DNA of 64,000 nucleotides from Chthoniobacteraceae bacterium (lineage in GTDB: Bacteria > Verrucomicrobiota > Verrucomicrobiia > Chthoniobacterales > Chthoniobacteraceae), in the NCBI GenBank assembly GCA_031409335.1, contig JANNWY010000307.1, positions 78,407 to 142,406 on the forward strand. The letters are read 5' to 3'. The position numbers and the translations under genes were made by a program. The notes beneath the pieces are model-generated. The model did not search any database. It was not told the origin of the DNA and saw only the letters and a list, made by a program, of their open reading frames with translations. Positions 38,201 through 64,000 of this stretch are shown here, in pieces (within the stretch, counting starts at the first letter, position 1; each line of letters opens with the position of its first letter).

Positions 38201-40071
38201 ATGTCGGCGCGGGCGGCGGCACCGTGCGCATCCCCGCCGCCTCCACGCTGACGCAGGCGGGCGCGATCACCGCGGCGGGCTTGTTCACTTTGGAAAATGC
38301 GGGCACTGCGACCCTGAGCGGAGCGATCGGCGGAGCGGCGGGAGTCGTCGTGAACACCAGCGGCACGACCAGCATTTCCGGGAACGTCGCGACCGCGCTG
38401 ACGCTCAACGGCGCGGGCAGCAGCGCGATTTCCGGCAACATCACCATCGCCAGCGTGCTCACCAAAAACGGCTCCGCCACCACGACGCTCACCGGCGCTG
38501 CGAACAATCCAGTCAGCACCACGATCGCCGCGGGCATCCTCCAGATCGGCGATGGCGTCGCCTCGGGCAGCATCGGCAATGGCGTCATCACCAACAACGC
38601 CATCCTCGCCTTCAACAATCCCGCGGCGGTCACGGCCGGCGGCGCGATCGGCGGCACCGGCATCCTGACGAAGACCGGCGCGGGGATCACGACGCTCAGC
38701 GGCGCGGCGGCAAATACGTTCACCGGAACGACGACGGTGAGCGGCGGCAATCTCGTGCTCGCGAAAACTTCCGGCGTCGATGCGATCGGTGGAAATCTCG
38801 TCATCGAAACCGGCGGCACCGTTTCCTACAGCGCGACCGCCGGTCAGTTCGCGGATCACATTCCAAACACCGCGACCATCACGATCAACGGCGGCACCTT
38901 CGGCTCCGGCGTGGGCGCGACGCTCGCCGCGCCGACGACGGGCGTGATGGACACCGTCGGGAATGTCACCGTCAACAGCGGCACCTTCCTCAGCGGGCGC
39001 GGTCCCGGCGCGACGCCCGCGCCGTTCGTGGTGCTCGGCGATTTCAAAGTGCTCGGCGGAAACGCGCTCGTGCAGCGCGGCGGCGCGCTCACCGCGACTT
39101 CCGTGCAACTCACCGCGCCCGCCGTGCTCGACCTCGACGGCGGCAGCGGCACGGCAAACAATCAGAGCCGGCTGAATGTCGGTGGGGACGGACTCGCGCT
39201 GACCGGCGCGACGATCAATCTCAACGCCGGGCCGAGCACCGTGAATGCCGCGTCGCTCGGCAGCATCGTGACCCTCGGCGGCAACGTGATTTCCACCGGC
39301 ACGAGCAGCATCGCGCGATTGAATCCGACGCTGTCGAATGCGTTTGTCGATCTCGCCGCGGCCACCCGCACCTTCGATGTCGCGGGCGCGCTGACCATCG
39401 CGCCCGCGGTGCGAAATGGCGGACTTCTCAAGACCAACGCCGGCACGCTGACGCTCACCGGCGTGAACACGCACGCCGACGGCACGACGATCACCGGCGG
39501 CATTTTGAATGCGAACGCCGACGCTGCGCTCGGTGCCGCGGCGGGTCCCGTCACAATCAGTGGTGGCGCAGTGCTGCAAGCTGGCGGCGCGATTTCCACG
39601 ACCGCGCGCACGGTCACGCTCGGAGCTGGCGGCGGACGCATCGACACGAATGGCAACGCCGTCACGCTCGGCATCGGCAGCACCGTCACCGGCACGAGTT
39701 TGACGAAAGTCGGCACAGGCACACTGACTCTCGCCGGCACCCAGACCTACGACACGCTCACGACTTCCGCGGGCCGCACCGATCTCACCAGCGCGCTCGG
39801 CACGGGCACCTCGACGATCAACTCCAACGCCGAAACCAACACCAGCGTCAGCCAGACCCTCACCGCGTTGAACATCGGCGACGGCGCGGTTTTCTCATTG
39901 GGCGCGCTGCCGCCCGCGCCCGCGCCGGGCCTCGCTTTCGAGCCAGCGTTCGCAAATTTCGAAGCAGCCGTGTCGTCCGCCGCCGCAGTCCCCGAGCCAG
40001 GCGCGACCGCGCTCCTGCTCGGAGCCGTCGTGATGTTTTTCGGACGCCTTCCGCGTTCGGATTTGCGTTAA
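35266..40071 (+). CDS. Autotransporter-associated beta-strand repeat protein with PEP-CTERM (~1600 aa)
   Basis: MKTNAIL signal peptide, repeats, VPEPGATALLLGAVVMFFGR. Confidence 0.92.
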   Translation: MKTNAILTRGIATLFALAPFAAHGAADTLTGTGGATQPGVSWAPTTAAGGTIGVWSLGAIPGAGDNAIIAATGLIDVRGSAAAFNPSATVGTTEIQDLTFNSTAAVTLNNNTTSRDMVLILNGGRGAGVPLISTIGDFAYTIQGAGSNGTTPRPLRLQLNASGGIDVTANALSISAVITESGGARSLSKTGAGRLVLSGANTFTGGIALSAGILRATGNAGALGTGTLTLAGGELQLANDAATAFNRNTVVTANAQITSDRAAAGAGVTHTLGTLAIGAQTLTIAPGALSTSGTAGVTFGATTLSGAAIFSVATGAALTLGATDVGANPLTASGPGTMTISGAISAGAGGLVRGGAGRVILAGASTFTTGATLLEGVTEVTNNDALGTGAIAINSGATLEVNLAGANLRAASITANPGGRVAVRGLTLNSAVTLAGGILGTRTNDLGTFAGPVNVAANSSVELINYTAPANNQSIIISGKLSGANTLNVVGGATANAGAKALILTDTANDFSGVFNVASGQRLSSIPAATTGSTLGTASVNLSGGFLRLNDNGVGVDGTLAYGNNLTVGGASTIDLDRVNGANSGNTFVLGTLTAGSGTLTINGANGYKASFTGGTLNGSATINHAGAVAITGAIGGFFGLNKTGAGTLTLGGANTYLGTTTVSVGGLNLTGSLAGVLALGANTTLSGAGTVLAGTSVANGAVLNPGNANAGTFTTGALTFGAADADLATVNFTTGAVPGNINVTAANGLAAFGAAGSVGLKLLTTLPALGTHTVIDYSGAIGGTGFSAFTLAPLPNPRIVATLANNLAATRIELTVTAVDAPRWSGALSGEWSTAILGTPKNWSLIIGVGTTDFISGDNALFDDAAAGGVRDIVLNVENVAPDSVVFDNSFAVPYTLSGTNAIAGTTGLTKTRNGTLTISNTNSFTGPVSISAGTISVNAVANSAANSPLGAGAIVNISNGGTLDFTGATGSTNRALNVGAGGGTVRIPAASTLTQAGAITAAGLFTLENAGTATLSGAIGGAAGVVVNTSGTTSISGNVATALTLNGAGSSAISGNITIASVLTKNGSATTTLTGAANNPVSTTIAAGILQIGDGVASGSIGNGVITNNAILAFNNPAAVTAGGAIGGTGILTKTGAGITTLSGAAANTFTGTTTVSGGNLVLAKTSGVDAIGGNLVIETGGTVSYSATAGQFADHIPNTATITINGGTFGSGVGATLAAPTTGVMDTVGNVTVNSGTFLSGRGPGATPAPFVVLGDFKVLGGNALVQRGGALTATSVQLTAPAVLDLDGGSGTANNQSRLNVGGDGLALTGATINLNAGPSTVNAASLGSIVTLGGNVISTGTSSIARLNPTLSNAFVDLAAATRTFDVAGALTIAPAVRNGGLLKTNAGTLTLTGVNTHADGTTITGGILNANADAALGAAAGPVTISGGAVLQAGGAISTTARTVTLGAGGGRIDTNGNAVTLGIGSTVTGTSLTKVGTGTLTLAGTQTYDTLTTSAGRTDLTSALGTGTSTINSNAETNTSVSQTLTALNIGDGAVFSLGALPPAPAPGLAFEPAFANFEAAVSSAAAVPEPGATALLLGAVVMFFGRLPRSDLR

Positions 40072-40099
40072 GAATCCGCGCGGCATCGCGATTGCGTTG

Positions 40100-43099: not shown

Positions 43100-43104
43100 G
43101 CGCA

Positions 43105-43288
43105 AGTAGCGCAGGCGCCCCGCCTGTCGGCTGTAGTAGCGCAGGCGCCTCGCCTGTCGGCTGTAGTAGCGCAGGCGCCTCGCCTGCCGGCAGTCCGGGC
43201 GGGCACCCCGCCTGCATGACCTCCCGGGAACGAACATGCAGGCGAGGCGCCCGCCCAGACAGCCGGCAGGCGGGGCGCCTGCGCTACT
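43105..43288. repeat. GTAG-type REP cluster (three 30-bp tandem units plus inverted partner)
   Basis: GTAGCGCAGGCGCC(C/T)CGCCTG at 43106, 43136 and 43166; inverted CAGGCGGGGCGCCTGCGCTAC ends at 43287. Confidence 0.85.
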
Positions 43289-43359
43289 TCCTTTTCGTGC
43301 GCCGCTGGGCGCATGAAACCGGAGATTGAGATTGCACGCGCCCTGTGCATCATCGCGCG

Positions 43360-44754
43360 ATGACAACGCCTTCCACCCTCGCTCCCGCCTCCCCGGTCAC
43401 CCGGCGGAGCTTCCTGAAAACCGGCACCGTGCTCGCCACCGGCATCGCGTCGCTCTCGCTGAGCGCGCGCGCCCAGACGAACAAGAACAGCAAGCTGCAA
43501 CTCCTGCACATCGGCGTCGGCGGCAGCATCGCGCCGCACGATCGGATGCAGCTCAAAAAGCACCCGGCGGTCGTCTTTACTGGGCTGTGTGATATCGACT
43601 CGAACACGATCGAGAAAATCTCGAAGGAGCATCCCGAGGCGTTCACCTGCCGCGATTTTCGCGAGGCTTTTGAAAAGCACTCGGACAAGTTTGACGCCGT
43701 GGTCGTTTGCACGCCGGACCACAATCACGCGGTGATCGACATGACGGCGATGAAAGCAGGCAAGCATGTGTACGGGCAGAAACCGCTGGTGCAGCAGCTT
43801 TCCGAAGTGGCGGCGATCGAGGGCGCGATCAAGGCGTGTCCGAATCTCATCACGCAAGCCGGCAACCAGCGCATGGGGCCGGTGGGGCGGCAGTATGCGG
43901 TGGATATTTTGAAGAAAGGGCTGCTCGGGAAAGCGATCGAGGCGCATGTGTGGGTCGGTGGTCCGCCGCCGGGAACACAGGGATATTTTTGGTACGGCGG
44001 ACTGCAAGAGCCGACGCCTCCGCCGCCGAATATCGACTGGACGCTCTGGCTCGGTTGCGCGCTCGACGCGCCGCATCGTCCCGGCCTCATCAATCTGCAA
44101 TGGCGCTCCTCGTGGGACTACGGCACGGGCCAGCTCGGCGACTGGTGTACGCATCTGCTCGACATCCTCTACTTCGCCTACGATCTCCCCTCTCCCATCG
44201 CCGTGCAGACGAACCAGCACGAGCCGACCGGCTTTTACCACACGCGCCACGCGCGCTCGACGCTGACTTACAAGGTGCCCGAGGACCGCTTCGCGAATGG
44301 CAAATTCGTCGTCAACTACGCCGACCAATCGCAAGCCCCCTCGCGCGCCTCGCTCGGGCTGCCGCCCGGAAAGTGGCCGGGCACGGGCACGCTCGTGGTG
44401 TGCGAAAAAGGCGTGCTGATGGTCGAGCCGGAGGGCAATCCCGAAGTCTGGATCGGTGGCAACCCCGGCGATTTCGAGACGCTCCCTGGTCTCGATACGC
44501 CGACCGCGCGCAATCACTGGCACTCGTGGGTGGACAAGATTCTCGGCAAGCCCGACGCATTCGTGCAGACCCCGTTTTCCTACGCCGCCAAGATCGCGGA
44601 AGCCGGCCTGCTCTGCGCCAAAGCCTCACGCTTTCCCAACACGGAACTGCGCTGGGATAAAGCCACGCTCACCTTCCCGAACCACGCCGAAGCGACAAAG
44701 ACAATCGTGCGCCGCGAATACCGCAAGGGATTCGAGTTGCCGACGTTTGCATGA
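43360..44754 (+). CDS. Gfo/Idh/MocA family oxidoreductase, Tat signal
   Basis: TRRSFLK, IGVGG, TPDHNHA, KHVYGQKPL and GQLGDWCTH motifs. Confidence 0.92.
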   Translation: MTTPSTLAPASPVTRRSFLKTGTVLATGIASLSLSARAQTNKNSKLQLLHIGVGGSIAPHDRMQLKKHPAVVFTGLCDIDSNTIEKISKEHPEAFTCRDFREAFEKHSDKFDAVVVCTPDHNHAVIDMTAMKAGKHVYGQKPLVQQLSEVAAIEGAIKACPNLITQAGNQRMGPVGRQYAVDILKKGLLGKAIEAHVWVGGPPPGTQGYFWYGGLQEPTPPPPNIDWTLWLGCALDAPHRPGLINLQWRSSWDYGTGQLGDWCTHLLDILYFAYDLPSPIAVQTNQHEPTGFYHTRHARSTLTYKVPEDRFANGKFVVNYADQSQAPSRASLGLPPGKWPGTGTLVVCEKGVLMVEPEGNPEVWIGGNPGDFETLPGLDTPTARNHWHSWVDKILGKPDAFVQTPFSYAAKIAEAGLLCAKASRFPNTELRWDKATLTFPNHAEATKTIVRREYRKGFELPTFA

Positions 44755-51701: not shown

Positions 51702-51983
51702 GAGTTGCTCCGCAATTTCCAGGTTCGGCACGGTCGTCGCAAACTCGGTCGTGACATCCAGCAGACCGCTTTCCGGGATTGGAAGATCGAGGTCGGAAGC
51801 AAATTGCGACGCCATGATTTCGCAGACAAGTCCCGTGGCTGCGCGTTCGCCGCTGCCCCGGAGTTTGAGGTAAAACTCCGCTTCCTCCCCACGCACGTCC
51901 TCGCAGAAAACCAGGCAGGGCTTTGTGCGGGTGTTCTCCACCCGTTTGTGAAAACGGGCGACGGTGTAGCGTGCGAGGCTCAT
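51702..51983 (-). pseudogene. HipA-family kinase N-terminal fragment
   Basis: RTKPCLV...EFYLKL...GLVCEIMASQFASDLDLPIP. Similarity ends at about aa 94, before any catalytic loop. ATGA-coupled to the R-M gene. Confidence 0.65.
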
Positions 51984-54900
51984 GAGAAAAGATCGCCCGT
52001 CGAATCATCCGCATTCTTCCGCGTCGGTTTGGCGATGGTTTCCAGCGCGCCACTTGCACTCAATTCTTCGGCGGTGATCGTCGGCCCGGTGCAAATCTTC
52101 TCCAGCAGCGCGGCTTGCTGCGGCTCCATTTCCACCAGCCAGCCGAGCACGTTCAGCACGTTGATCAGCTCGGTGGTGTATTCGGCGAGCCAGTGGTCGG
52201 GCTGGATCTGGCCGAGCGGCGAGGGCGGGCGGCGGTCGCCGATGATCGGGCGCTCGCGGTCGCGCTTCCGGTAGCTGAACCATTGCAGCAGCACCTGCTT
52301 GCCGGAGACTTCGTAGTGCCACACGGCGGGCGGCACGTTCTCCACGTAGCCGCTGCCGATCGACAGGCGTTGTTTGCCCGCGTCGTAGCTGAGCGCATCC
52401 GGCATCGCTTCCGGCGTCTGTGGGATCGCGCCGGCGGCGGGAACGCGCGGGCGTTTCGCTTCGGGCAGGCGCGGCGGTTGGGCGGGGCGTCCGTGGTCGG
52501 GATCGGCCAGGCGTTCGCCGAAGGTGTGCAGCCAGATGACGGTGCGCCCGAGCGCGACGGCGGCGGTGAAGGTGGCGGCGTCGGCGGTGAGCGGGAGGCG
52601 CAGGCCGGGCGTCGAGAGGTCGTCTTGAAAGCGCGCGGTGAAGGCCGGGTGCGCGGCGGTCGCGGCCACGTAGGCGAGGAAATCCTCGGCGCTCACGGCG
52701 CAGCCCAGGCGCTGCGCGAGGCAGGGCAGCAGCTTCGGCGGAAGATTCGCGCTGCTCGCGCCGGCATCGCGCCAGAGCGGGAAGACGCGGCCACCGAACG
52801 AGCCTTTGTAGTGATCAAGATCAGGATTGAGGCCGGTGATTGTGAGCGCGGGGCCAGAGGACGGCGACGTGCGCGACATGGCGGTGAGATAAACTTGGCG
52901 ATCCGAGTGCATGCCCCACAGCTCGGGGTTCGGACGGTTGATCAACCGGTTGTCGGGAATGATCCACTGCCGGCGAATGACCGATACCCGTAGCGCACTG
53001 GAGCAATGCACCCGCCGGTTTCGTCCGCGACGGGTTTTGGTCGTGCTTCATAACCGGGAAGACCTTGTTTCACGACGCGTTGACTGTGCCTGTCACCGAG
53101 CTTCCCGCCAGAAAGGTGCGGCTGGAAAAGAGCGTCCATCTCGGATTTCGGCGACGCGATGAGTTTTCTCCACCGCTTCTCCAACGATTCAGAATCCGGC
53201 GCGATAATCCATGTGCGCCCCGGCATCGATCCCGAGCCGTTGTAGATGAAAAGGTCTTCGAGTTTCGGAAACGTCGCCCACGCGCCCGTCGAGGCTGGCA
53301 GGAACGGCGCGCGCCAATCGGTCGGGCAGTCGATCCATTCGCCCATGCCGATCCGCAGTTCGCCGAGCGCCTTGAACTTCTCCGTGCGATGGCCGGTCGG
53401 CAGCGCGTGGAAGCGCACCTTCGCCGGCACGCTCGGGTCGCTCTTCGCCGAGCGCGAGGCGAGCACGATGCAGACGGGCTGCTGCACGCCCTGGAAGATG
53501 CGCGTGTTCACCTCCGGCTGATGCCCCTCGGGCGAGCAGTCGATGACCCAGATGTCGTCGCAGGTGCGCCGGAGGTAATCGCGCATCTTTTGAAAACCCG
53601 GCCCGCCGAGGAAGCCGGCGACGGTGATGTAGCAGACGATGCCGGCGCGGTTCGCGGGGTGGTGATCGAAGACCTTCCACGTCGCCCAGCGCCAGAAGTA
53701 GATGTAGAGATTGCGCAGGTGCTTGCTGTGCGCGCCCGCGCCCCACTCGCGCGGCGGCATCCACTCGGCGAGCGGTGCGGTTTTCTCCGCCGCAGCGTCT
53801 TCGCCCTCGATCCAGCCGCCGCGGCCCTTGGCCTTTTCTTTGTAGGGCGGGTTGCCGAAGACGACGGTGACGGGTTCGTCGCGCTTGATCTTGTTCGCGG
53901 CCTTCCGCGACTGCGCGATGGGCGCGAGCATCCCGGGAATCCAGCCTTCGTCGTCGTCGGGATTTCCGAGCGTATTCGTGACGAACATGCGCACGGACTC
54001 CTGCGGCACCGCGCCGGTCAGCTCGACGATCTCGGCGAGGATGCGGAGCTGCGCGACGGCGAACGGACCGAGCTGCATCTCGAAAGCGATGAGCCTTTTC
54101 ACCGCCGCGTCGATCGCGCCGCGGACCGCGCCCGCGCCTTCATCCGCCGCGATGGTCTCGGCGATTTTGCGCAGCACGCCGAGCAGGAAGGTGCCGGTGC
54201 CCGTGGCCGGATCGACGAGCGTGACGACGGGCGAGGCGAGGCCGGCGTGGAGCTGGAAGCGGTCGCTGCGCAGCACGTCATCGACGAGGCGGACCATGGC
54301 GCCGACGACTTCCGGCGGGGTGTAGTAGGAGCCGGTGAGCTTGCGCAGCGCGCTGTCGTAGATCTCGAGAAAGTCCTCGTAGAAGTAGAGCCACGCGTCG
54401 GGCTGGCCCTTGCTGACTTTGCTCCAGTTCACGGCGTCGAGCACGCGGGTGAGCGTGCCGAGCGAGGTCTTGAGCGTGGCCTGATTCTCGGCGTTGTCGG
54501 TGAGCAGGCGGAGCGCGGCGCCGATCAGCGAGTTCGATTTGGTGAGTTCGTTGGCGACTTGCTGGAGGCCGGTGGTGAGCGGGATGTCCTTCGCCCGCGC
54601 CATGAGCAGGCCGAAGGTGACGGCCTGCGCGTAGCCGTCGGCGAACCGCTCGTCGGTGGCGTCGGGGAAGAGCAGCTTGCGCCAGTCGGTGGCGAGGGCG
54701 GTGAGGGCTTCGCTGCCGAGGGCGAGTTGCTCGGTCACTTCATCGCGGAGGAAGCGGCAGAGGCGGGCGCTGATGTGGGCGAGGTCTTTGGCGCTGCGCG
54801 GCGGGATGGGTTCCCAGCGGAGGAAATTCTCGAACAGCGCGAGCAGGCCGGGCGGCGCAGCGAGTTTGTCGCCGGAGCTTTCGATGTCGCCGATGAGCGT

Positions 54901-55308
54901 GACGACGGCATCGACCAGTTCGCCGTTTTGCCAAAGGCTGAACGCATTGCCGTCGGTGTAGAGGACGTTTGGCAGCGAGCGCAGCTTTTCCCACTGCGCC
55001 TTGTCGTGCGGGTCGCGAAACTTGCGCGGATCGCCACCTTTGCCCGGCGCTTTCAACTCCACAAAACCGACGAGCGCGTGATGGACGGTGATCGCGTAAT
55101 CGGGCCGCGTCTTCAGTTCGCTGAGTGACGATTCGCCGACGGCGGTGACTTTCGCGCGCGGGATGTTCGCGAGTTCCGCCATGTCGCCGAGCAATTGCTC
55201 GAAGGGCGCGCGGAGCTGGTCCTCCGGCTCGCCGTTGGCCGCTATATTGGAGAGTTTCTGTTTAGCCGCCGCACCAAACGCAGCGATCGCTGGGGAGGTA
55301 ATCGGCAT
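51980..55308 (-). pseudogene. Type IIG/ISP-like single-chain restriction-modification enzyme (N6-adenine MTase), split by a 1-nt frameshift near 52973
   Basis: RPDY..VELKAP nuclease, YYTPPEVV, DPATGTGTF and GNPPY motifs. YGYRSF continues as RQWIIPD in another frame (type ISP C-terminal specificity domain). Confidence 0.85.
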
Positions 55309-55496
55309 TATCGGTTGCGAGCGGCGCGGCGGGGGAAGCGCACATGGAACGAAATAAAGTTGTCGCCCTCGACGATGAGATTGCCCTCGCCCGGCGCGCC
55401 GCAGCCCAGCTCGGGCACGTCGTGCAGCAGGTCAAACGGCACCTGCAAATGGTGGTTCACCACCGCGTCTTTTCCAATCCAGTTCAGCGTGGGCAT
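55308..55496 (-). pseudogene. N-terminal stub of a type III R-M Mod methyltransferase
   Basis: MPTLNWIGKDAVVNHHLQVPF...NLIVEGDN, then similarity breaks off. Confidence 0.75.
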
Positions 55497-55563
55497 GAAC
55501 CGCGCATCCTTGTCCGCCGTGCCGCCCCCGGCAATGCCCGAGTTCGAGCGTCTTCTGCAATTC

Positions 55564-55622
55564 CCCGCGTCCGCGCCACGTTCACCAGCCGTTCTATTCT
55601 GCCGATGCCATGACCACGACCA
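55564..55622 (+). repeat. Diverged direct repeat C, copy 2 (covers the start of the 55610 gene)
   Basis: CCCGCGTCCGCGCC...CCGATGCCATGACCACGACCA. Confidence 0.75.
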
Positions 55623-56017
55623 CCTCCGCGCCGCGCTGGATGCGCAATGTTCTCCTCGCCGCGGGCGCTTACAATGTGCTCTGGGGCGCGTTCGCCGTGC
55701 TCTTTCCGAATGTGATCTTTCGCTGGCTCGACATGCCGCTGCCAAACTACCCGCAGTTCTGGCAATGCATCGGGATGATCGTCGGCGTGTATGGGCTCGG
55801 CTATGCCATCGCCGCCTTCGATCCCGTGCGCCACTGGCCCATCGTGCTCGTCGGTTTTTTGGGAAAAGTGTTGGGTCCGCTCGGGATGGTGGAAGCGTTG
55901 TGGACGAGCGCGCTGCCGTGGGGCTTTGCGCTGAATTGCGTGACCAACGACCTCATCTGGTGGGTGCCTTTCGCGCTCATCCTGAAACACGCGTGGGTCC
56001 GCAATACCGCGGCATGA
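55610..56017 (+). CDS. Small membrane protein (domain type also seen fused to peroxiredoxin-like proteins)
   Basis: LLAAGAYNVLWG, WQCIGMIVGVYGLGY, GKVLGP and NDLIWWVPF motifs. Confidence 0.8.
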   Translation: MTTTTSAPRWMRNVLLAAGAYNVLWGAFAVLFPNVIFRWLDMPLPNYPQFWQCIGMIVGVYGLGYAIAAFDPVRHWPIVLVGFLGKVLGPLGMVEALWTSALPWGFALNCVTNDLIWWVPFALILKHAWVRNTAA

Positions 56018-56427
56018 CGACCCTGCTCGCGGTTCACGCCGCGGCGACGTGGGCGCTCGTCGGCCTGATCTGGACGGTGCAACTCGTCCACTACCCGCTC
56101 TTCGCGCAAGTCGGCGCCGACGCCTTCCGCAGCTACCACGCGCGCCACACGCGGCAGATCACCTGGATCGTCGCGCCGCTCATGGCGGTGGAACTTCTCA
56201 CCGCCATCCTGCTCCTCGTTCGTGGCGCGCGCGAGCCGTGGCTGCTCGCGAGCTTCGTCCCGCTGGCGTTCAACTGGCTCGCAACCTGGCGCGTGCAAAT
56301 CCCGCTCCACAACCGCCTCGCCGCCGGCTTCGACGCCGACGTGCATCGCCAGCTCGTGGCCACGAATTGGTGGCGGACGGCTGCCTGGAGCCTGCGCGGC
56401 GGCTGCCTGCTCCTTGGCTTCTCCTGA
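56014..56427 (+). CDS. Conserved membrane protein
   Basis: GLIWTVQLVHYPLF...QIPLH...LVATNWWRT; ATGA overlap with the upstream gene. Confidence 0.8.
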   Translation: MTTLLAVHAAATWALVGLIWTVQLVHYPLFAQVGADAFRSYHARHTRQITWIVAPLMAVELLTAILLLVRGAREPWLLASFVPLAFNWLATWRVQIPLHNRLAAGFDADVHRQLVATNWWRTAAWSLRGGCLLLGFS

Positions 56428-56448
56428 CCCTGCGCAAACGATTTGATC

Positions 56449-57402
56449 TCACCGCTTCCAGCGCGCCGCGTTCGCCGGCCGTGCCTTCTTCGTCCGCGCC
56501 ACGACCGTCCTCGCCAACAGATTCACAGCGGGATGTTCGATCCGTCGTTCCGCGGTGATGAGATAGAGTTGGACTTCGCACGCCTCCGTCTTTCCCACCG
56601 AGATAAAGCCGTAGCGCTCGATCGCTTCCGCAGCGACGACAGTGGGCACGACGGTGATGCCGACGCCCTCGGTCGCCACGATCTTCGCCAGCGCGGCATC
56701 CTCAAATTCGCCAACCACCACAGGCTCGACCCGCACCGTGCGGAACCATTTTTCCAAGTCCCGCCGCAGCGCGGTATTCTGCGTGGGCAGGAGCATGGGT
56801 GCGCCATGAAGGTTTCGGGGAAAGCGGCCGGCCAGCTCTCGCGCCAGCGTCGGCGCGGCACAAAAGGTGACCCCACTCACCCCGAGCGGATGGGTGAAGG
56901 TCTTGACCTTGCTGCCCGATGGAGGCGGCTCGTCGGCGAGCACGGCGTCGAGCCGATGCGCCGCGAGTTGCCCGAGCAAATCGTCGAGCTTTCCCTCCCG
57001 GCAACTGACTTGCACGGTCGGCACGTGCGCAAAGACGGGGCGCAGGATGTCGAGGCTGAGCAGCTTTGGGAAGGAATCGACGATCCCCACGTGCAGCCGC
57101 AGCGTCCGGGTGCTCGGCGCGCGTTTGGCGATGGTGAGCAGCTCCCGACCCAGCGCGAGAATCTCATCGGCATAGCCGTAGATGAGCCGTCCAAAATCGG
57201 TGAGCACGATCGAGCGACCGCTGCGCCGGTAAAGCGTTTCGCCGAGGGCTGATTCGAGCTGCTTTACCTGCGTGCAGATCGACGGTTGCGAAGTGCGCAA
57301 CTTCTCCGAAGCGCGCCGCACGCTGCCCTCCCGGGCCACGGCGTGAAAGTAACGGAGGTGATGATAGTTCAGCCATTCGTCTGCTGGATTCTTGGATTCC
57401 AT
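56449..57402 (-). CDS. nhaR: LysR-family transcriptional activator, NhaR subfamily
   Basis: WLNYHHLRYF, YGYADEI, CREG, HRLDAVL, EFEDAAL and ERRIEHPAV, as in NhaR. Confidence 0.85.
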   Translation of the reverse strand: MESKNPADEWLNYHHLRYFHAVAREGSVRRASEKLRTSQPSICTQVKQLESALGETLYRRSGRSIVLTDFGRLIYGYADEILALGRELLTIAKRAPSTRTLRLHVGIVDSFPKLLSLDILRPVFAHVPTVQVSCREGKLDDLLGQLAAHRLDAVLADEPPPSGSKVKTFTHPLGVSGVTFCAAPTLARELAGRFPRNLHGAPMLLPTQNTALRRDLEKWFRTVRVEPVVVGEFEDAALAKIVATEGVGITVVPTVVAAEAIERYGFISVGKTEACEVQLYLITAERRIEHPAVNLLARTVVARTKKARPANAARWKR

Positions 57403-57471
57403 AAAAGCTCACGGTAGCTGCGAGATTGCGTCTTTGTCGAATCCGGATGTCGCAGTGAAAGTCGGCGCTCC

Positions 57472-57825
57472 ATGAAATTCATCCTCACTCACCGCCACCA
57501 TCAACCCTCGCCATCCTTCATCGCGCTGATTGAACAGCGTTTGGAATCGCTGCGCGAGGCTCTGCAAATCGACGAAGCTCGCGTAATGATCGAGCGCAGG
57601 CTCGAAGAGAGCCCTCCCTTCCGGGTCTCGGCGCATCTTGTGACGCCAGGGCCGGACGTCCTCGCGGAAGCCGTCGATCACACCTTGCGCGCCGCGCTGG
57701 GCAAGCTGTTCGGAAAGCTCGATGAGCGCATTGATCACCGCCACGAAAAGCGCGTCCGGAGCGGACCCAATCCAATCAAGAAGACTTCGCCCGCGCCGCG
57801 TGCGCCGGTCGGCGGACGGACCTAG
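57472..57825 (+). CDS. HPF/RaiA-like ribosome-associated protein
   Basis: Short basic protein with HPF-like pattern (...VSAHLVTPGPDVLAEAVDHTLRAAL...). Confidence 0.7.
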   Translation: MKFILTHRHHQPSPSFIALIEQRLESLREALQIDEARVMIERRLEESPPFRVSAHLVTPGPDVLAEAVDHTLRAALGKLFGKLDERIDHRHEKRVRSGPNPIKKTSPAPRAPVGGRT

Positions 57826-57866
57826 ATCACCAGCAACTCATCTCAACAGACACGCCTGCCGAACCT

Positions 57867-58316
57867 ATGAAAAAATTGAACCCGACCCTTTCCTCATACA
57901 TGAACTACGTCTCCGAAGAGGGGCTGAATCTCGATCGCTTTGTCGAGCACGGCGGCCGGATACTCGGTCCGGACGAGGCACGCGGTCTTGCGGACGGCTC
58001 CGACGATCTTCGCGAGAAGATCAGCGACGTGCGCCGCGCGCATCCATTGCTCGCGCGGCAACTCGAATTCCTCGCGAGTTTCTTCGAGGCCGCTCCGCCG
58101 GATGTGTCCGAGGACGTCCGCAATGAAACGATCTTCGCTCTGCTCTACGCCGCGAAAGACATGGACATGATGCCGGATGACATGCCGGAAGTCGGCTATC
58201 TCGATGACGCTGCCGTCACCGAAAGCGTCCTCTCGCGGCACGCCGATGTCTTCGCAGAATACTGCGCCACGCACGACCTCGAGTGGGCCGCATTGAAGCC
58301 CGAAACTCGCCACTGA
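57867..58316 (+). CDS. DUF1232 (YkvA) family protein
   Basis: ALLY...DMMPDDMPEVGYLDDAAV. Confidence 0.8.
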   Translation: MKKLNPTLSSYMNYVSEEGLNLDRFVEHGGRILGPDEARGLADGSDDLREKISDVRRAHPLLARQLEFLASFFEAAPPDVSEDVRNETIFALLYAAKDMDMMPDDMPEVGYLDDAAVTESVLSRHADVFAEYCATHDLEWAALKPETRH

Positions 58317-58347
58317 AAACTCTTCACCACGCACTTCCCGATACTCC

Positions 58348-58677
58348 ATGCATCGGTCCTTCACAATTGGCCGAATGCTCGGCATCGACGTGTTCCTGCA
58401 CGTTACCTTCCTACTCGTGCTCGGCTTCATCGCGATCACGCATTGGTTCGTCCATAGTTCGCTTGCCGCGGTCATTGGCGGCGTCGGCTTCTTCGTCGCG
58501 CTTTTTGCCTGTGTACTGCTGCATGAAAATCGGCACGCCCTCCTGGCGCGACGCTTTGGCATCGCCAGGCGCAACATCACGCTGCTGCCCATCGACAGCG
58601 TGGCGCGCCGGGAGCGCGGTGCCGAGCCGCCTCCGCTGCCGCTCGACGCTCGTATAAGGTTTCTCGCCCGTCGTTAA
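58348..58677 (+). pseudogene. Truncated site-2 protease (M50) remnant
   Basis: GIDVFLHVTF, LLHENRHALLARRFG (degenerate HExxH context) and ITLLPIDSVAR (normally LLPIGGVAR). Ends before the NxxPxxxxDG motif. Confidence 0.75.
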
Positions 58678-58740
58678 CAGAAAACCCGCGCCATGTTCGC
58701 CCATCACGGAAGGCATTGGCGCACCAACTACAAATTCATT

Positions 58741-59184
58741 TTGAAAACCAAACCCAAGACCAAACAACTCACCGGCGCAGACTTCATTGCGTTCATCACC
58801 CGCGGAGCATCCCTGCTCACTCCGGCATCCGTCCAGCAGCTCGTCTCCGACCTGCCGGATTTGCGCGAACGCTTTGGCCTTCTGCGCGAAGCCGGATATC
58901 CCGACGCCGAGCAGCAGCTCCACTTTCTTTCGCAGATCGTCGAACTGGTGTGGACCGATCAGTATCGCGACATGCCTTATGGTGCCGCGCTCGAGGCCGC
59001 CTTTGCTGTCTCCTATTTCGCCCGCGAGGGCGATCTCATCCCCGACACCCTCGGGGCGATCGGCCTCATCGACGACATCGCCGTCGCGCAGACCGTGCTG
59101 TTGCGGAACGTAGATGCGTTCGAAGCGTTCACCGCCACCACGAAGCTGCCCTCGCCAAACATTTCGTTACCCACGCGCGCCTGA
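58741..59184 (+). CDS. DUF1232 (YkvA) family protein, second paralogue
   Basis: AVSYF...DLIPDTLGAIGLIDDIAV. Start is uncertain (58693 ATG or 58741 TTG). Confidence 0.78.
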   Translation: MKTKPKTKQLTGADFIAFITRGASLLTPASVQQLVSDLPDLRERFGLLREAGYPDAEQQLHFLSQIVELVWTDQYRDMPYGAALEAAFAVSYFAREGDLIPDTLGAIGLIDDIAVAQTVLLRNVDAFEAFTATTKLPSPNISLPTRA

Positions 59185-59229
59185 TCGCCTCCGGCAGCGT
59201 TCTCATCTCGCTTCGCAGAAAATCATTGA

Positions 59230-60192
59230 ATGACTAACAACACCTGGCTCTGGATCGGCTTCAACCTCTTCGTCCTCTTCATGCTCGCGCTCGACCTTGG
59301 CGTCTTCCACCGGAAGGCACATGTGGTCTCGTTTCGCGAAGCCATCGCTTGGACGGTCGCCTGGGTCACGCTGGCCATGCTCTTCAACATGGGCATCTGG
59401 TATTACGCCGGAGCGCAGAAAGCCCTGGAATTCACCACCGGCTACGTCATCGAATACTCGCTGAGCGTCGATAACATCTTCGTCTTCGCGATGCTGTTTT
59501 CCTATTTCGCGGTGCCGCCGCTTTATCAGCACCGCGTGCTCTTTTGGGGCATCCTCGGCGCGCTCGTCCTGCGCGCTCTCATGATCGTCGCTGGCACAGT
59601 GCTCATCACGAAGTTCGCGTGGATCATCTACGTCTTCGGCGCGTTTCTCATCCTCACGGGCATTAAGATGATCGTGAAGCGCGAGGAGGAGATTCATCCC
59701 GAGCGCAACCCGGTGGTGCGCTGGTTTAAGAAACTCATGCCCGTGACCAGCGACTATCGCGGCGACAAATTTTTCGTTCGCGAAAATGGCGTCCGCATGG
59801 CTACGCCGCTCTTCGTCGTGCTCTTGCTCGTGGAAGTCTCGGACGTGATTTTCGCGGTCGATTCCATCCCGGCGATATTCGCCGTCACGAAGGATGCTTT
59901 CATTGTCTATACCTCGAACGTCTTCGCCATCCTTGGCCTGCGCTCGCTCTACTTCGCGCTCGCGGGCGTGCTGGACAAATTCCACTACCTCAAGATCGGT
60001 CTCGGTGTGGTGCTGACCTTTGTCGGCGTGAAGATGCTGCTCGGGCATACCGCTTACAAGATCGACACACTCGTCTCGCTCGGCGTGATCGTTGCCGTGC
60101 TGGCCACCTCGATCATCGTGTCGCTGCTGCGGCCGAAGAAAGCGGAGTTGCATCTCGGCCACGCTCCGGTTGTGACCCCTTCGGAACCCTGA
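59230..60192 (+). CDS. terC: TerC/Alx family metal-homeostasis membrane protein (copy 1)
   Basis: EYSLSVDNIFVF, DVIFAVDSIPA and SNVFAILGLR motifs. Confidence 0.92.
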   Translation: MTNNTWLWIGFNLFVLFMLALDLGVFHRKAHVVSFREAIAWTVAWVTLAMLFNMGIWYYAGAQKALEFTTGYVIEYSLSVDNIFVFAMLFSYFAVPPLYQHRVLFWGILGALVLRALMIVAGTVLITKFAWIIYVFGAFLILTGIKMIVKREEEIHPERNPVVRWFKKLMPVTSDYRGDKFFVRENGVRMATPLFVVLLLVEVSDVIFAVDSIPAIFAVTKDAFIVYTSNVFAILGLRSLYFALAGVLDKFHYLKIGLGVVLTFVGVKMLLGHTAYKIDTLVSLGVIVAVLATSIIVSLLRPKKAELHLGHAPVVTPSEP

Positions 60193-60280
60193 TGAGCATC
60201 GTCCTAGCCGCGCGCGCCCCGTTGCAAAGCGGGGCAGATTGCGGCTTAACCATCAACGTTTCCACACACCATCGTAACTA

Positions 60281-61243
60281 ATGACTGACAACCTCTGGCT
60301 CTGGATCGGCTTCAACGTCTTCGTCCTCCTCATGCTCGCGCTCGACCTTGGCGTCTTCCATCGGAAGGCGCACGTCGTGACTTTCAAGGAGTCGATGGCG
60401 TGGACCGTCGTCTGGATCACGCTCGCGCTGGTCTTCAACGTCGGCGTTTACCACTACATGGGATCGCAGAAGGGGCTCGAGTTCTTCACCGGCTACGTCA
60501 TCGAGAAGTCGCTCAGCGTGGATAACGTCTTTGTCTTCGCGCTGCTCTTTTCCTACTTCGCGGTGCCGCCGCTTTATCAGCACAAGGTGCTCTTCTGGGG
60601 CATCCTCGGCGCGTTGATCATGCGGGCGATCATGATCTTCCTCGGCGCGGCGCTGATCGAACGCTTCACTTGGATCATCTACGTCTTCGGCGCGTTCCTC
60701 ATTCTCACGGGCATCAAGATGATCGTGAAGCGCGACGAGGAAATCCACCCCGAGCGCAACCCGCTGGTGCGGTGGTTTAAGAAGCTCATGCCGGTGACGA
60801 ACGACTATCGGGGCGATAAATTCTTCGTGCGGGAAAATGGCATCCGCATGGCTACGCCGCTCTTTGTGGTGCTGCTGCTCGTCGAGTTCTCCGATCTCAT
60901 CTTTGCGGTCGATTCGATCCCCGCGATCTTCGCCGTCACCAAGGATCCGTTCATCGTTTATACATCGAACGTCTTCGCCATCCTCGGCCTGCGTTCACTC
61001 TACTTCGCCCTCGCGGGAGTGATGGATAAGTTTCATTACCTCAAGATCGGCCTGGGTGTCGTGCTCGCCTTCGTCGGTGTGAAGATGCTACTCGGGCATA
61101 CCGCTTACAAGATCGACACACTCGTCTCGCTCGGCGTGATCGTTTCGGTGCTCGCCATCTCGATCATCGTGTCGCTGCTGCGACCGAAGCAAGCCGTGCT
61201 GCGCCTCGGCCATGCCCCGGGGACGACTCCTGAGCAGCCCTGA
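60281..61243 (+). CDS. terC: TerC/Alx family protein (copy 2)
   Basis: EKSLSVDNVFVF and DLIFAVDSIPA; same length (320 aa) and very similar to copy 1. Confidence 0.92.
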   Translation: MTDNLWLWIGFNVFVLLMLALDLGVFHRKAHVVTFKESMAWTVVWITLALVFNVGVYHYMGSQKGLEFFTGYVIEKSLSVDNVFVFALLFSYFAVPPLYQHKVLFWGILGALIMRAIMIFLGAALIERFTWIIYVFGAFLILTGIKMIVKRDEEIHPERNPLVRWFKKLMPVTNDYRGDKFFVRENGIRMATPLFVVLLLVEFSDLIFAVDSIPAIFAVTKDPFIVYTSNVFAILGLRSLYFALAGVMDKFHYLKIGLGVVLAFVGVKMLLGHTAYKIDTLVSLGVIVSVLAISIIVSLLRPKQAVLRLGHAPGTTPEQP

Positions 61244-62574
61244 TGAGCGTCGTCTTTGTCGAAATCCTGATCGTCGTCGCGCTGTTCATCGCGAATGGAG
61301 TCTTTGCGATGAGCGAGATGGCTGTCGTGTCGTCGCGCAAGTCGCGGCTCAAGCAAATGGCGGCGGACGGCAACGCGGGTGCGGCCGCGGCGCTGCGCCT
61401 GGCGGAAACGCCGAATCGTTTCCTGCCCACCGTGCAGATCGGTATCACGCTGATCGGTCTGCTGGCCGGTGCCTTCAGCGGCGCGACGCTGGCCGGCGAG
61501 TTGGCCGCGCGGTTGAAGCCGCTGCCGGGTTTCGCGCCGTATGCCGATGCGGTGAGCGTGGGTCTTGTCGTCGTCGCGCTCGCCTTCCTCTCGGTCATCA
61601 TTGGCGAACTCGCGCCGAAACGCATCGCGCTGGCCGCACCGGAGAAGATCGCCAGCCGCCTGGCGCGACCCATCGAGTTACTCAGTCGCCTCGCCCAGCC
61701 AGTGGTCCAACTACTGAGCGGCGCGACCGATCTCCTCCTCCGCCTATTGCGGATCAAACCCAGCCAACCGGCGAGCGTTTCCGAAGACGAAGTGCGGCTC
61801 CTTTTGCGCGAAGGGCGGGAGAGTGGGGTCTTTCTCAAGGAGGAGCCGCGCATGGTGGATTCCGTGCTCTCCTTCGATCGCAGGCCCGTGCGGGAAATCA
61901 TGACGCCGCGCGCGAAGCTCGTTTGCGTGAGCACCGCTGATACCCAGGAAACGCTCTGGCACAAAATCGTCGTCTCCGGCCATTCGAGCTACCCGGTCTT
62001 CGCGCATGATCGCGATCACATCGTCGGTGTGGTCGCGGTGAAAGCCATCTACGCAAACCTCGCCGCGGGTGCCCCGGTGCGCGTGGCCGATCTGCTCACC
62101 GCGCCGCTCTTTGTCGCACCGGACGAGCCAGTGCTGGATGTCCTGAACCAATTCAAACGCACCGGCGTGCATCTCGCCGTGGTGCGGGAAGCGGATGGCC
62201 GCGCCGTCGGACTCGTGACCCTCGTGGACGTGCTGGAAGCCATCGTCGGCGACATTCCCTCGTTCGAAGATCGCCTGCAGCCCAAAGCCCGGCAGCGCCC
62301 GGATGGGTCGTGGCTGGTCGATGGCCAATACGATTTCGCCAAGCTCGCCGCCCTGCTCGGTGTCGCCATCGCGCCGCCCGCTTCCGACGCCAGCGCCACC
62401 CTCGCCGCGTTCGTCAGCGATCAACTCGCCGGTCATCCGCGCGAGGGCGATTGCTTTACCTCCGCTGGTCTGCGCTTCGAGATCATCGACATGGATCGCA
62501 CCTCCGTGGACAAGATCCTCATCGAGCCCGCCGGCACCCCTCGACCCATGGAAACCTCAGTCGCGTCCGCATGA
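61243..62574 (+). CDS. Hemolysin-family CNNM/CorC transporter (DUF21 + 2 CBS + CorC_HlyC)
   Basis: NGVFAMSEMAVVSSR, TVQIGIT, GELAPK, VREIMTPR and DGSWLVDG motifs. Confidence 0.92.
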   Translation: MSVVFVEILIVVALFIANGVFAMSEMAVVSSRKSRLKQMAADGNAGAAAALRLAETPNRFLPTVQIGITLIGLLAGAFSGATLAGELAARLKPLPGFAPYADAVSVGLVVVALAFLSVIIGELAPKRIALAAPEKIASRLARPIELLSRLAQPVVQLLSGATDLLLRLLRIKPSQPASVSEDEVRLLLREGRESGVFLKEEPRMVDSVLSFDRRPVREIMTPRAKLVCVSTADTQETLWHKIVVSGHSSYPVFAHDRDHIVGVVAVKAIYANLAAGAPVRVADLLTAPLFVAPDEPVLDVLNQFKRTGVHLAVVREADGRAVGLVTLVDVLEAIVGDIPSFEDRLQPKARQRPDGSWLVDGQYDFAKLAALLGVAIAPPASDASATLAAFVSDQLAGHPREGDCFTSAGLRFEIIDMDRTSVDKILIEPAGTPRPMETSVASA

Positions 62575-63407
62575 CCCTCCTCGCAAAACGCATCGTCGAT
62601 TCGAGACCGTTCCGCGCCACGATCATCGCGGTGATCCTCCTCGCCGGCGTGCTTGCTGGCGTGGAAACGAGCGCCGCCATGCTCGCGCAACACGGTGCCT
62701 TACTGCACGCGCTTGATGCCGCCGTGCTCGCCATCTTCATCCTCGAGATCGTGCTGAAACTCGTCTCCCACGGCCGCCGCCCGCTCGACTACTTCCGCGA
62801 TGGCTGGAACGTCTTCGACTTCACCATCGTCGCGCTCTGCATACTGCCGGTCGGCGGCCCATTCGCCGCGGTGCTGCGACTCGTGCGGACGCTGCGGCTG
62901 CTGCGACTCGTCACCGCGCTGCCGAAGCTGCAACTCCTCGTCGGCGCGCTCATCAAGAGCCTGAGTTCCATGGGCTACGTCGGACTACTCCTCGGTCTGA
63001 TCTTCTACATCTATGCCGTCACAGGGGTCCATTTGTTTGGGAAGGCATCCCCCGAGTATTTTGGAAGCCTGACCGCCGCCCTGCTCTCACTCTTCCAGAT
63101 GATCACGCTCGATGACTGGAGGACCATGTATGACGGCGCGCAAGCTGCCGCGCCCTTCGCCGCCACCCCTTACTTCGTCAGCTTTATCCTGCTCGGCACG
63201 ATGATCATGCTGAACCTCTTCATCGGCATCGTCATGAACAGCATGGCCGAGATGCACACCGAACTCGACGAGTTGAAGGAAGCCGCCCGAGCCACTGCGG
63301 AAAAAGGCACCGTGCTCAGCGATATAACCGCGCTCGACCAGCAACTCGCCGGTTTGCGATCCCAGCTCGATGCGCTCCGGGCAAAGCTTTCGCAAACCCC
63401 TTCATGA
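62571..63407 (+). CDS. Bacterial voltage-gated cation channel (BacNav/Cav-like, 6TM)
   Basis: FRDGWNVFDF, S4 LRLVRTLRLLRL, pore FQMITLDDW, S6 LNLFIGIV, C-terminal coiled coil. Confidence 0.92.
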   Translation: MTLLAKRIVDSRPFRATIIAVILLAGVLAGVETSAAMLAQHGALLHALDAAVLAIFILEIVLKLVSHGRRPLDYFRDGWNVFDFTIVALCILPVGGPFAAVLRLVRTLRLLRLVTALPKLQLLVGALIKSLSSMGYVGLLLGLIFYIYAVTGVHLFGKASPEYFGSLTAALLSLFQMITLDDWRTMYDGAQAAAPFAATPYFVSFILLGTMIMLNLFIGIVMNSMAEMHTELDELKEAARATAEKGTVLSDITALDQQLAGLRSQLDALRAKLSQTPS

Positions 63408-63649
63408 AAACCAAACACTGGCTGCTCGTGCTCTGGGTGCTCATCGTCTTCGCGCTCCATCAGGATGTGTGGAACTGGACTAAGTCTGGCCCGCTCCTCT
63501 TCGGCCTGCTGCCGCCGGGGTTGACTTATCACCTCGGTTACTCCGTGCTCGCCGCGTTCACCATGGCGCTGCTTGTGCGCTTCGCCTGGCCCGCGCATCT
63601 CGAAGATGAAGCGCCCGGCGACCAACAGCCTCCCACCAAGAAGCCATGA
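63404..63649 (+). CDS. DUF3311-like small membrane partner of an SSS transporter
   Basis: LHQDVWNW...[12 protein letters not shown]...RFAWP; immediately upstream of the symporter. Confidence 0.8.
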
Positions 63650-64000
63650 TCCCCGCCATCGTCGTCTTCATCTACCTCGCGATCATCCTCTACGTGGGGA
63701 TGTTTGCCTTCCGCAAGAGCACCGGCTCAAAGGAGGATTTCTTCCTCGCGAGCCGGTCGCTCGGGCCGTGGGTGTTTCTGCTCACCGTCTTCGGCACGAA
63801 CATGACGGCCTTCGCCATCCTCGGCAGCTCCGGCCTCGCCTATCAGCGCGGCATCGGGGTCTATGGGCTCATGGCTTCATCGTCGGGGCTCATCATTCCG
63901 CTCACCATTTTCCTCATCGGCACGCGGCTGTGGTCGCTCGGGAAGCGGCACGGCTACATGACGCAGGTGCAGTATTTCCGCGACCGCTGGGAGTGCGATG
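63646..64000 (+). CDS. Sodium:solute symporter family protein, 3'-partial
   Basis: [11 protein letters not shown]...[11 protein letters not shown]...[11 protein letters not shown]...[12 protein letters not shown]. Confidence 0.88.

Follow-up and report, generated by a model that had tools for sequence, protein, structure and literature searches.

The 64,000-nucleotide stretch of Chthoniobacteraceae DNA analysed here (the window) encodes a single-domain voltage-gated-type cation channel (P0001) whose selectivity filter, TLDDWRT, carries two adjacent aspartates and, after the Trp, an arginine. We propose that this channel passes Ca2+ together with Na+ and K+, is not Ca2+-selective, and serves as a cation entry route within an operon for alkaline, low-CO2 conditions; the probability of this combined reading is put at about 0.45. 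The filter variant and the operon context are real and apparently undescribed, although the channel itself is of a known kind. Of the two, the gene context is the newer finding.

The channel gene and its selectivity filter

The original prediction described an intact four-arginine S4 segment and a pore in which FQMI is followed by TLDDWRT at 63105–63125. Both are confirmed by translation. The gene and its features are listed below.

62571..63407, + strand: single-domain voltage-gated-type cation channel with six transmembrane segments, 278 residues (Pfam PF00520, PDB sequence matches and tree; Asp3 clade among AnclNav-type channels)
62877..62906, + strand: S4 gating charges R103, R106, R109 and R112
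63105..63125, + strand: selectivity filter T179-L-D181-D182-W-R184-T185, positions 1–7 (ACG CTC GAT GAC TGG AGG ACC; FQMI directly before)
63195..63227, + strand: S6, from G209-T210 to G219
63252..63392, + strand: C-terminal helices, likely a tetramer coiled coil (predicted helices 195–245 and 248–274; coiled-coil role suggested by BacNavs)

Residues 12–230 match the Pfam family Ion_trans (PF00520, E 9e-45). The protein has the fold of BacNav-type channels, an S1–S6 Ion_trans domain with a P1–filter–P2 pore, and their voltage sensor, with the RxxRxxRxxR pattern in S4, the counter-charges of S1–S3 and the charge-transfer Phe. In an alignment of 44 of the 121 channel proteins (the query and its 120 best matches), the four S4 arginines are invariant (44/44), as are E32, D49, F56, E59 and W79-N-x-F-D83, which include the counter-charges and the charge-transfer Phe (F56). 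G209, T210 and G219 of S6 are likewise invariant. This part of S6 aligns with the GT...NLFIG stretch of NaChBac (6vwx), within which T220 and G229 are inactivation residues (PMC7041947; this and the other published channel data are cited from the accessible parts of the papers). The P2 helix holds an additional acid, D188.

The best matches among solved bacterial channels are NavCt (4bgn, 190.7 bits) and NaChBac (178.2), followed by NavMs (160.1) and NavAb/CavAb (150.7). A structural model, one of the checks suggested in the original prediction, was made for the monomer; it gave a predicted local distance difference test score (pLDDT) of about 78–84 in the pore and had CavAb and NavAb as its top Foldseek matches, but overall pLDDT was 65, the predicted template modelling (TM) score of the whole model only 0.41, and the TM score to NavAb and CavAb about 0.37. 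From its sequence, P0001 is likely to be a voltage-gated tetramer. A public RNA run yielded short pieces, mostly less than 95% alike, and gave no evidence of transcription.

The two Asp codons, for which a sequencing error had been named as a refuting outcome, proved genuine. An error is ruled out by public contigs and by the occurrence of TLDDW in 81 of the 121 proteins. Contigs from two public runs span 63041–63119 with zero differences, and in four runs of one study the sole listed change within the filter is the synonymous T63113C. The two best-matching runs are freshwater sediment metagenomes, one of which may be the source sample. Across the six frames of the whole 7.9-Mb genome, TLDDW occurs once.

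Filter variation among relatives

Filters were compared in 241 distinct proteins, of which 240 could be parsed and one could not. A first search took the best 120 matches of 8000 scored candidates, which are 66–93% identical to the query and, where named, come from Chthoniobacteraceae or Verrucomicrobiota. The 81 TLDDW filters in this set (query included) comprise TLDDWRT (46), TLDDWKF (19) and other forms (16), the remainder being mostly TLDNW. A second search, started from a more distant member, added 120 further proteins, nearly all with TLDNW(G/A/S)D. Asp at position 3 is present in 239 of the 240 parsed proteins. The group is a clade of Verrucomicrobiota marked by Asp as the third filter residue, hereafter the Asp3 clade. 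Two further filters were noted: one genome (contig C194 of G470; L213 and L231) carries two channel copies about 2.3 kb apart, with TLDDWRT and TLDDWRN, and locus L226, at 54% identity, has TLEGWVE.

The second aspartate is accompanied by a basic residue. Arg or Lys occupies position 6 or 7 in 79 of 82 proteins with Asp at position 4 (Asp4), whereas a basic residue is found in 4 of 158 proteins without Asp4, 157 of which have an acid at position 7. The same split is seen among 81 genome rows (49/50 Asp4 versus 0/31 non-Asp4). Net charge over positions 3–7 is −2 in 160 proteins, −1 in 78 and 0 in two, and never −3 (n = 240). The three unopposed acids of CavAb (Asp3-Asp4-neutral-Asp7) occur in none of the 240, including the 82 with Asp4. 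Because the charge never reaches −3 and Arg/Lys covaries with Asp4, we read Asp4 in this clade as substituting for the position-7 acid and bringing a counter-charge, with no charge added. The reservation made in the original prediction, that Thr stands at the third acidic site and Arg after the Trp, has therefore become central, as throughout the clade Asp4 varies together with the Arg and with the absence of Asp7.

Set against known filters, P0001 has TLDDW in place of the canonical Na+-selective TLESW (Glu3, Ser4). It shares positions 1–5, and thus Asp3 and Asp4 (D181, D182), with CavAb (TLDDWSD) and CaChBac (TLDDWAD); these are engineered on canonical backbones about 34–40% identical to P0001 and have a neutral residue 6 and Asp7, where P0001 has R184 and T185. 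CavMr, a member of the same broad group, depends on Gly4 aided by Val6, and P0001 has Asp4 and Arg6 instead. Asp3 is shared with NsvBa, whose GxG motif after the Trp and Bacillus-group backbone are not, WRTM replacing WGSG. The AnclNav pattern, a polar or acidic residue 7 with Gly or Asp at position 4, is found in Thr7 and Asp4.

In the full-text literature, which here excludes figures, most subscription papers and the sequence files of PMC7041947, TLDDW stood, in the passages covered, for the engineered CavAb or CaChBac filter, and the same corpus held no match for TLDNW, LDDWRT, LDDWKF, LDNWSD or LDNWGD and no AnclNav report on a selectivity-filter arginine.

Phylogenetic position

A tree of 112 rows was calculated after the filter columns had been taken out; the rows were the query, 80 GTDB loci (the best 80 of at least 334 confirmed, 57–95% identical, two pairs sharing a genome), 27 phylum loci and four channels from a plasmid collection. 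The latter were taken from 39 channel records, all at most 37% identical. Phylum loci L005 and L006 were left out as duplicates. All rows of the Asp3 clade, together with L102 (TLEGWVD), form one branch with a support of 100 in the Shimodaira–Hasegawa-like approximate likelihood ratio test (SH-aLRT); two long-branch Asp3 rows, L033 and L134, lie outside it. This branch is placed inside a 94-row branch (SH-aLRT 95) with channels bearing TLEGWVD, TLEGWTE, TLEDWTD and TLENWPD, and the TLESWSM channels stand apart. The nearest outgroup filters are TLEDWTD, the filter of NavPp, and the sister lineages are 39–48% identical. Channels with TLEGWVD, the filter of CavMr, lie beside the Asp3 clade (L007) and inside it (L102). 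Since the CavMr and NavPp filters occur among the neighbouring branches of a tree that is without CavMr, NavPp and Bacillus sequences, the channel most likely belongs to the AnclNav group. The L102 gene (329–1159 of its locus, with 328 upstream bases covered) may represent a reversion or a filter swap.

When the P2 helix was removed along with the filter, Asp4 and the basic residue required four changes each. Repeated independent origin of Asp4 with Arg/Lys, at which the free tree hints, is not demonstrated: a single origin was not rejected (P = 0.109 in the approximately unbiased test), and the independent pairs are too few.

A profile search of 1.84 billion representatives mostly returned multi-domain channels: of the 150 matches listed, nearly all were longer than 600 residues. 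It does not amount to a cross-phylum survey of single-domain filters. Several multi-repeat, eukaryote-like channels of 800–1750 residues (P0122, P0123, P0124, P0129, P0130 and P0272) were met, the repeats of which have AnclNav-like filters such as TLEDWTD, TLENWSD and TGEDWTD. P0122–P0124 score above all other four-domain channels against the bacterial profile and may bear on the origin of multi-domain channels.

Ion selectivity

The closest functional model for P0001 is NsvBa of Bacillus alcalophilus (TLDSWGS), which has a natural Asp3 filter and a link to alkaline pH homeostasis. It is non-selective, its Asp3 admits Ca2+ and Ba2+, and the replacement D186E alone restores Na+ selectivity (DeCaen et al., 2014, PMC4225499). 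It differs from P0001 in Ser4 and Gly6, in a GxG motif that aids K+ permeability, and in the lack of Asp4 and Arg6. In NaChBac, the permeability ratio of Ca2+ to Na+ (PCa/PNa) is 0.15 with LESWAS, 35 with LEDWAS, 73 with LEDWAD and 133 with LDDWAD (PMC2229573). Because Asp3 admits Ca2+ and Ba2+ in NsvBa and Asp4 raises the ratio to 35 in NaChBac, P0001 is likely to be Ca2+-permeable and not Na+-selective. Eukaryotes also have natural single-domain Asp3 channels. The diatom channel OsEukCatA1 (TLDAWAD), one residue away from the clade filters TLDAWSD and TLDNWAD, conducts with either Na+ or Ca2+ (PMC6509283) and is termed non-selective elsewhere (PMC10120453). CatSper1 has Asp4 as well (PMC10120453), but CatSper is a heterotetramer and therefore has no fourfold Asp-Asp ring.

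High Ca2+ selectivity is unlikely because the gene nests among AnclNav filters, where Asp4 gives Ca2+ block or poor selectivity. Asp4 filters in AnclNav backbones have PCa/PNa values of 0.31–13.8, and those based on CavMr pass K+ and Cs+ too (Shimomura et al., 2020, PMC7041947). CavMr of Meiothermus ruber (TLEGWVD), described in 2020 as a native prokaryotic Ca2+ channel with a PCa/PNa of 218, relies on Gly4, with Val6 in support and Asp7 dispensable; the exchange G4D lowers its ratio to 7.7 and the NavPp filter to 13.8, and K+ and Cs+ then pass (PMC7041947). The original prediction, which is silent on CavMr, is likely right as regards permeability, on the Asp3 of NsvBa and the Asp4 of NaChBac, but probably does not extend to CavAb-like selectivity, given the AnclNav data on Asp4.

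In mechanistic terms, the short Asp3 would widen the high-field-strength ring and remove Na+ selectivity, as in NsvBa. Asp4 would add a Ca2+ site, and Arg6 together with the lost Asp7 would cancel charge, leaving −1 per subunit compared with −3 in CavAb. Arg6 plausibly faces the pore mouth, as the outer ring in four-domain channels is made by residues three or four places beyond the high-field-strength site (PMC4436565). In an invertebrate Cav3, a Lys that neutralizes the position-4 Asp makes the channel Na+-permeable (PMC10120453). We consider a channel that is Ca2+-permeable together with Na+ and K+, and not Ca2+-selective, somewhat probable.

Two other selectivities have to be weighed. The channel could resemble NavPp of Plesiocystis pacifica (TLEDWTD), a single-domain voltage-gated Asp4 channel which prefers Na+ and is blocked by Ca2+ (PCa/PNa 0.31; PMC7041947). 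P0001 would then conduct mainly Na+ or other monovalent ions, with millimolar Ca2+ blocking at Asp3/Asp4, and would supply Na+ for a cycle with SbtA and the SSF symporter. TLEDWTD channels are sister lineages of the clade and provide the nearest outgroup filters, NavPp kept its Ca2+ block when given the CavAb-like TLEDWSD or TLEDWAD (PMC7041947), and the neighbouring genes include Na+-coupled transporters and an NhaR-like regulator. However, NavPp has Glu3, and it is the choice of Glu or Asp at this site that decides Na+ selectivity in NsvBa. Its Thr6 and Asp7 (net −3) are replaced by Arg6 and Thr7 (net −1) in P0001, which lies in a TerC operon, and a site at which Ca2+ blocks should be weaker with Arg6 present and Asp7 gone. 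We regard NavPp-like conduction as rather unlikely.

A native counterpart of CavAb, with high Ca2+ selectivity through Asp3-Asp4 rings and Arg6 pointing away from the pore, appears quite unlikely. The rise from 0.15 to 35 by Asp4 alone and the value of 133 for LDDWAD in NaChBac would agree with it, as would CatSper1, an Asp3-Asp4 channel that has been called Ca2+-selective, the additional acid D188 and the CavMr filter of the clade member L102. On the other hand, P0001 has neither Asp7 nor Gly4 and no clade member reaches −3; the CavAb recipe failed in an AnclNav backbone, and the full LDDWAD graft in NsvBa reached a PCa/PNa of no more than about 30 and still leaked monovalent ions (PMC4225499). 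The recurring neighbour clusters that were annotated include no gene for a Ca2+ pump, exchanger or EF-hand protein.

The predicted operon in the window

The proposed non-selective channel is encoded in a predicted operon with a divergent regulator gene. The other genes and elements are, in order up to the contig end:

56449..57402, − strand: divergent LysR regulator, NhaR-like (best NCBIfam match NhaR, NF008284, 191.8 bits, cut-off 219; next family 95 bits)
57397..57441, strand unassigned: conserved divergent control region, likely LysR operator, with boxes resembling TTCC-N7-GGAA and TTCG-N7-CAAA (alignment of 56 distinct regions)
57472..57825, + strand: HPF/S30AE-like protein, first gene of the predicted operon (PF02482, E 3.8e-9)
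57867..58316, + strand: DUF1232 small protein (Pfam)
58348..58677, + strand: M50 peptidase-CBS gene, 5' fragment (matches 95 of the 372 residues in a relative)
58693..59184, + strand: DUF1232 small protein (Pfam)
59230..60192, + strand: TerC, Alx subfamily, copy 1 (TIGR03718, 445.3 bits; 84% identical to copy 2)
60281..61243, + strand: TerC, Alx subfamily, copy 2 (TIGR03718, 455.7 bits, cut-off 246.4)
61243..62574, + strand: CNNM-CBS-CorC_HlyC protein (PaeA is the top NCBIfam family but its cut-off is not reached)
62571..63407, + strand: the channel
63404..63649, + strand: DUF3311-like small membrane protein (below Pfam cut-off)
63646..64000, + strand: Na+/solute symporter (SSF), cut by the contig end (remainder matches contig C140)

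The second terC stop and the start of the CNNM gene share 1 nt, 61243. Overlaps of the form ATGA connect the CNNM gene with the channel (62571–62574), the channel with the DUF3311-like gene (63404–63407) and the latter with the SSF gene (63646–63649). Both TerC proteins are of the Alx type: they pass the model for E. coli Alx and keep acids spaced as the essential E86/D92 and E213/D216/D222. The tandem pair (59230–61243) recurs in L037, L053, L082 and L091. Of the M50 peptidase-CBS gene, only the first 95 codons are left here; contig C148 carries a complete copy next to a second HPF-like gene.

The operon appears to be controlled by the divergent LysR protein, as an Rfam scan of 55000–64000 revealed no riboswitch (yybP-ykoY and Na+/Li+ types included) and one chance snoRNA match. 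The first half-site of the control region overlaps the LysR start codon. In a scan of the genome with a control-region matrix, which includes the regulator start codon and five misregistered rows, only the home site was strong (40.4 versus 17.6 for the next). A cluster on contig C279 (about 35500–44600) encodes a neutral zinc peptidase, an HPF-like protein, a response regulator, an HflK/C-like pair (by eye), TMEM14-like and DUF533-like proteins and SbtA, and several of its genes occur inside the channel operon of other genomes. Its membership in the same regulon is unsupported, as only the home site scored well.

Further upstream in the window (51980–55308, − strand), two overlapping open reading frames (788 and 343 residues) look by eye like one frameshifted DNA methyltransferase or type IIG restriction-modification gene, with NPPY in the first.

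Conservation of the gene neighbourhood

Among the 80 GTDB loci, whose genome records are all titled as metagenome-assembled genomes, TerC is encoded within 7 kb of the channel in 73, and in 72 it is upstream on the same strand at a distance of at most 2.6 kb. The link spans Chthoniobacteraceae, Verrucomicrobiaceae, Akkermansiaceae, Opitutaceae and Pedosphaeraceae. An HPF-like gene is present in 53 loci and the NhaR-like LysR in 46. The CNNM gene is found in 26 (24 at a stricter threshold). The coupling to TerC and CNNM genes claimed in the original prediction is therefore conserved for TerC, whereas that to CNNM, though the genes overlap here, is not.

Clustering of the neighbouring open reading frames revealed SbtA, annotated as an Na+-dependent bicarbonate transporter, in 22 of the 80 loci, PII/SbtB-like proteins in 10, PurK and PurE in 13 each, β-carbonic anhydrase in six and a DUF533-like protein in 22. 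Thirty loci have one or more of the four genes for SbtA, carbonic anhydrase, PurK and PurE, on the channel strand in 25; among the 53 loci with at least 5 kb of downstream sequence, the figure is 24. These bicarbonate genes accompany TLDNW (11/31) and TLDDW (19/49) forms alike, so that this context is a property of the Asp3 clade and not of the Asp-Asp motif. One open reading frame of 680 residues (P0274; seven member sequences, one contig) combines a complete TLDDWKF channel with a complete PurK and may be either a true fusion or a case of a lost stop codon. Among 51 longer matches there was no fusion of the channel to TerC or CNNM; they include a channel–SSF reading frame, which is probably the product of a deletion.

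As controls, 18 other channels from the same phylum (17 with Glu3, one a divergent Asp3) were examined over up to 7 kb on each side. No TerC, HPF-like, LysR or bicarbonate gene was found, the sole match being one phospholipase D. In five genomes with a Glu3 channel and an Alx-type TerC (two of the controls and three more from the phylum loci) the two are always on different contigs, whereas in the two Asp3 genomes from the same sample they are adjacent.

E. coli Alx exports Mn2+ that accumulates at alkaline pH (PMC10197570). The other recurring neighbours are related to bicarbonate and not to calcium. PurK and carbonic anhydrase matter under scarce CO2, and NhaR is the activator through which nhaA responds to Na+ when the pH is alkaline; nhaA itself is not among the recurring annotated neighbours. 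As Alx-type TerC, the NhaR-like regulator and bicarbonate genes recur at these loci and are absent from the 18 controls, the neighbourhood suggests an alkaline, low-CO2 module, a part of our proposal that we hold to be reasonably probable. The NhaR-like regulator would turn the operon on at high pH or under Na+ stress, Alx-type TerC would export excess Mn2+, and SbtA, carbonic anhydrase and PurK/E would secure bicarbonate. The channel would readmit the cations that cation/H+ antiport and Na+-coupled uptake require, a role proposed for the Bacillus channels NavBp and NsvBa. In alkaliphilic Bacillus, cations used in cation/H+ antiport come back through the channel and through Na+/solute symporters, and a shift from pH 7.4 to 9.4 moves channel activation by −28 to −34 mV (PMC4225499). 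Within the literature covered, it is only there that a physiological role of such channels has been tested, the roles of CavMr and NavPp being speculated upon. The full-text literature yielded no report that joins TerC, NhaR and a voltage-gated channel, or the TerC protein Alx, alkaline conditions and NhaR, or four of SbtA, TerC, LysR, carbonic anhydrase and purK.

Weighing of the proposal

Several observations count against our proposal. With regard to selectivity, Asp4 beside Glu3 suffices for a PCa/PNa of 35 in NaChBac (PMC2229573), and a review holds that Asp at position 4 means Ca2+ selectivity or block, citing the Asp-Asp pair of CatSper1 (PMC10120453). For a basic residue at position 6, the literature covered holds no functional test. 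The reference channels CavMr, NavPp and those of Bacillus are absent from the tree. The covariation of Asp4 with a basic residue reflects few events (four changes, with one independent pair on well-supported branches), and a single Asp4 origin was not rejected by the test given above. Selectivity and physiology of the clade are predictions from sequence and analogy.

With regard to context, the LysR protein stays below the NhaR cut-off, though NhaR is its best family by about 97 bits. The SbtA and DUF533-like genes of this genome lie on another contig, C279. Only two of the 18 control genomes are listed with an Alx-type TerC above cut-off, so the control is partly empty. A reverse survey took 40 of 70 regulator matches; from the 27 loci at 60% identity or more, an HPF-like gene was found in 22, TerC in 16, CNNM in 11 and the channel in only seven. 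The channel is present in 24 of 151 genomes of the source organism's family. From these two counts, it is an optional member of the LysR–HPF–TerC module. Gene order conserved among kin can, moreover, be inherited or moved as a block.

It is improbable that the channel is a mere passenger in a mobile LysR–HPF–TerC block, or that it works together with TerC and CNNM in the handling of transition metals or Mg2+, with the bicarbonate genes uninformative on its role: its distribution is patchy, the module often lacks it, and the Asp3 filter and TerC link arose on one branch and thus represent one event rather than many, but the link persists over five named families and 57–95% identity while other genes are reshuffled, the coding ends overlap at start and stop codons, Mg2+ is not conducted by NsvBa (PMC4225499), and the CNNM gene is found in a minority of loci.

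Significance

Even if P0001 is a Ca2+ channel, it is not the first native bacterial one, as CavMr is known. The Asp3 clade offers a natural mutational series on one backbone, consisting of TLDNWSD/GD/AD, TLDDWRT, TLDDWKF, TLDDWGK, TLDAWSD and one TLEGWVD. It asks whether the aspartate rule of CavAb or the glycine rule of CavMr governs, and what a fourfold Arg/Lys ring does in the outer mouth of the pore.

In Verrucomicrobiota, the module of NhaR-like LysR, HPF-like protein and Alx-type TerC, with its conserved divergent control region, also occurs without the channel. The LysR–HPF–TerC module may be an undescribed regulon worth study. The conserved operon, with its regulator, Alx-type TerC and bicarbonate genes, provides a concrete condition, high pH with low CO2, under which expression or a phenotype can be sought.

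As an outside chance, the Asp-Asp filter of this widespread clade may mark a natural homotetramer that conducts Ca2+ and is tuned by a position-6 ring of Arg/Lys, in a LysR-controlled alkaline and inorganic-carbon operon through which depolarization at high pH would be linked with the entry of Ca2+ and the uptake of bicarbonate. If true, this would represent a third route to divalent permeation besides the three acids of CavAb and the glycine of CavMr, and would give an AnclNav-type channel a defined physiological pathway.

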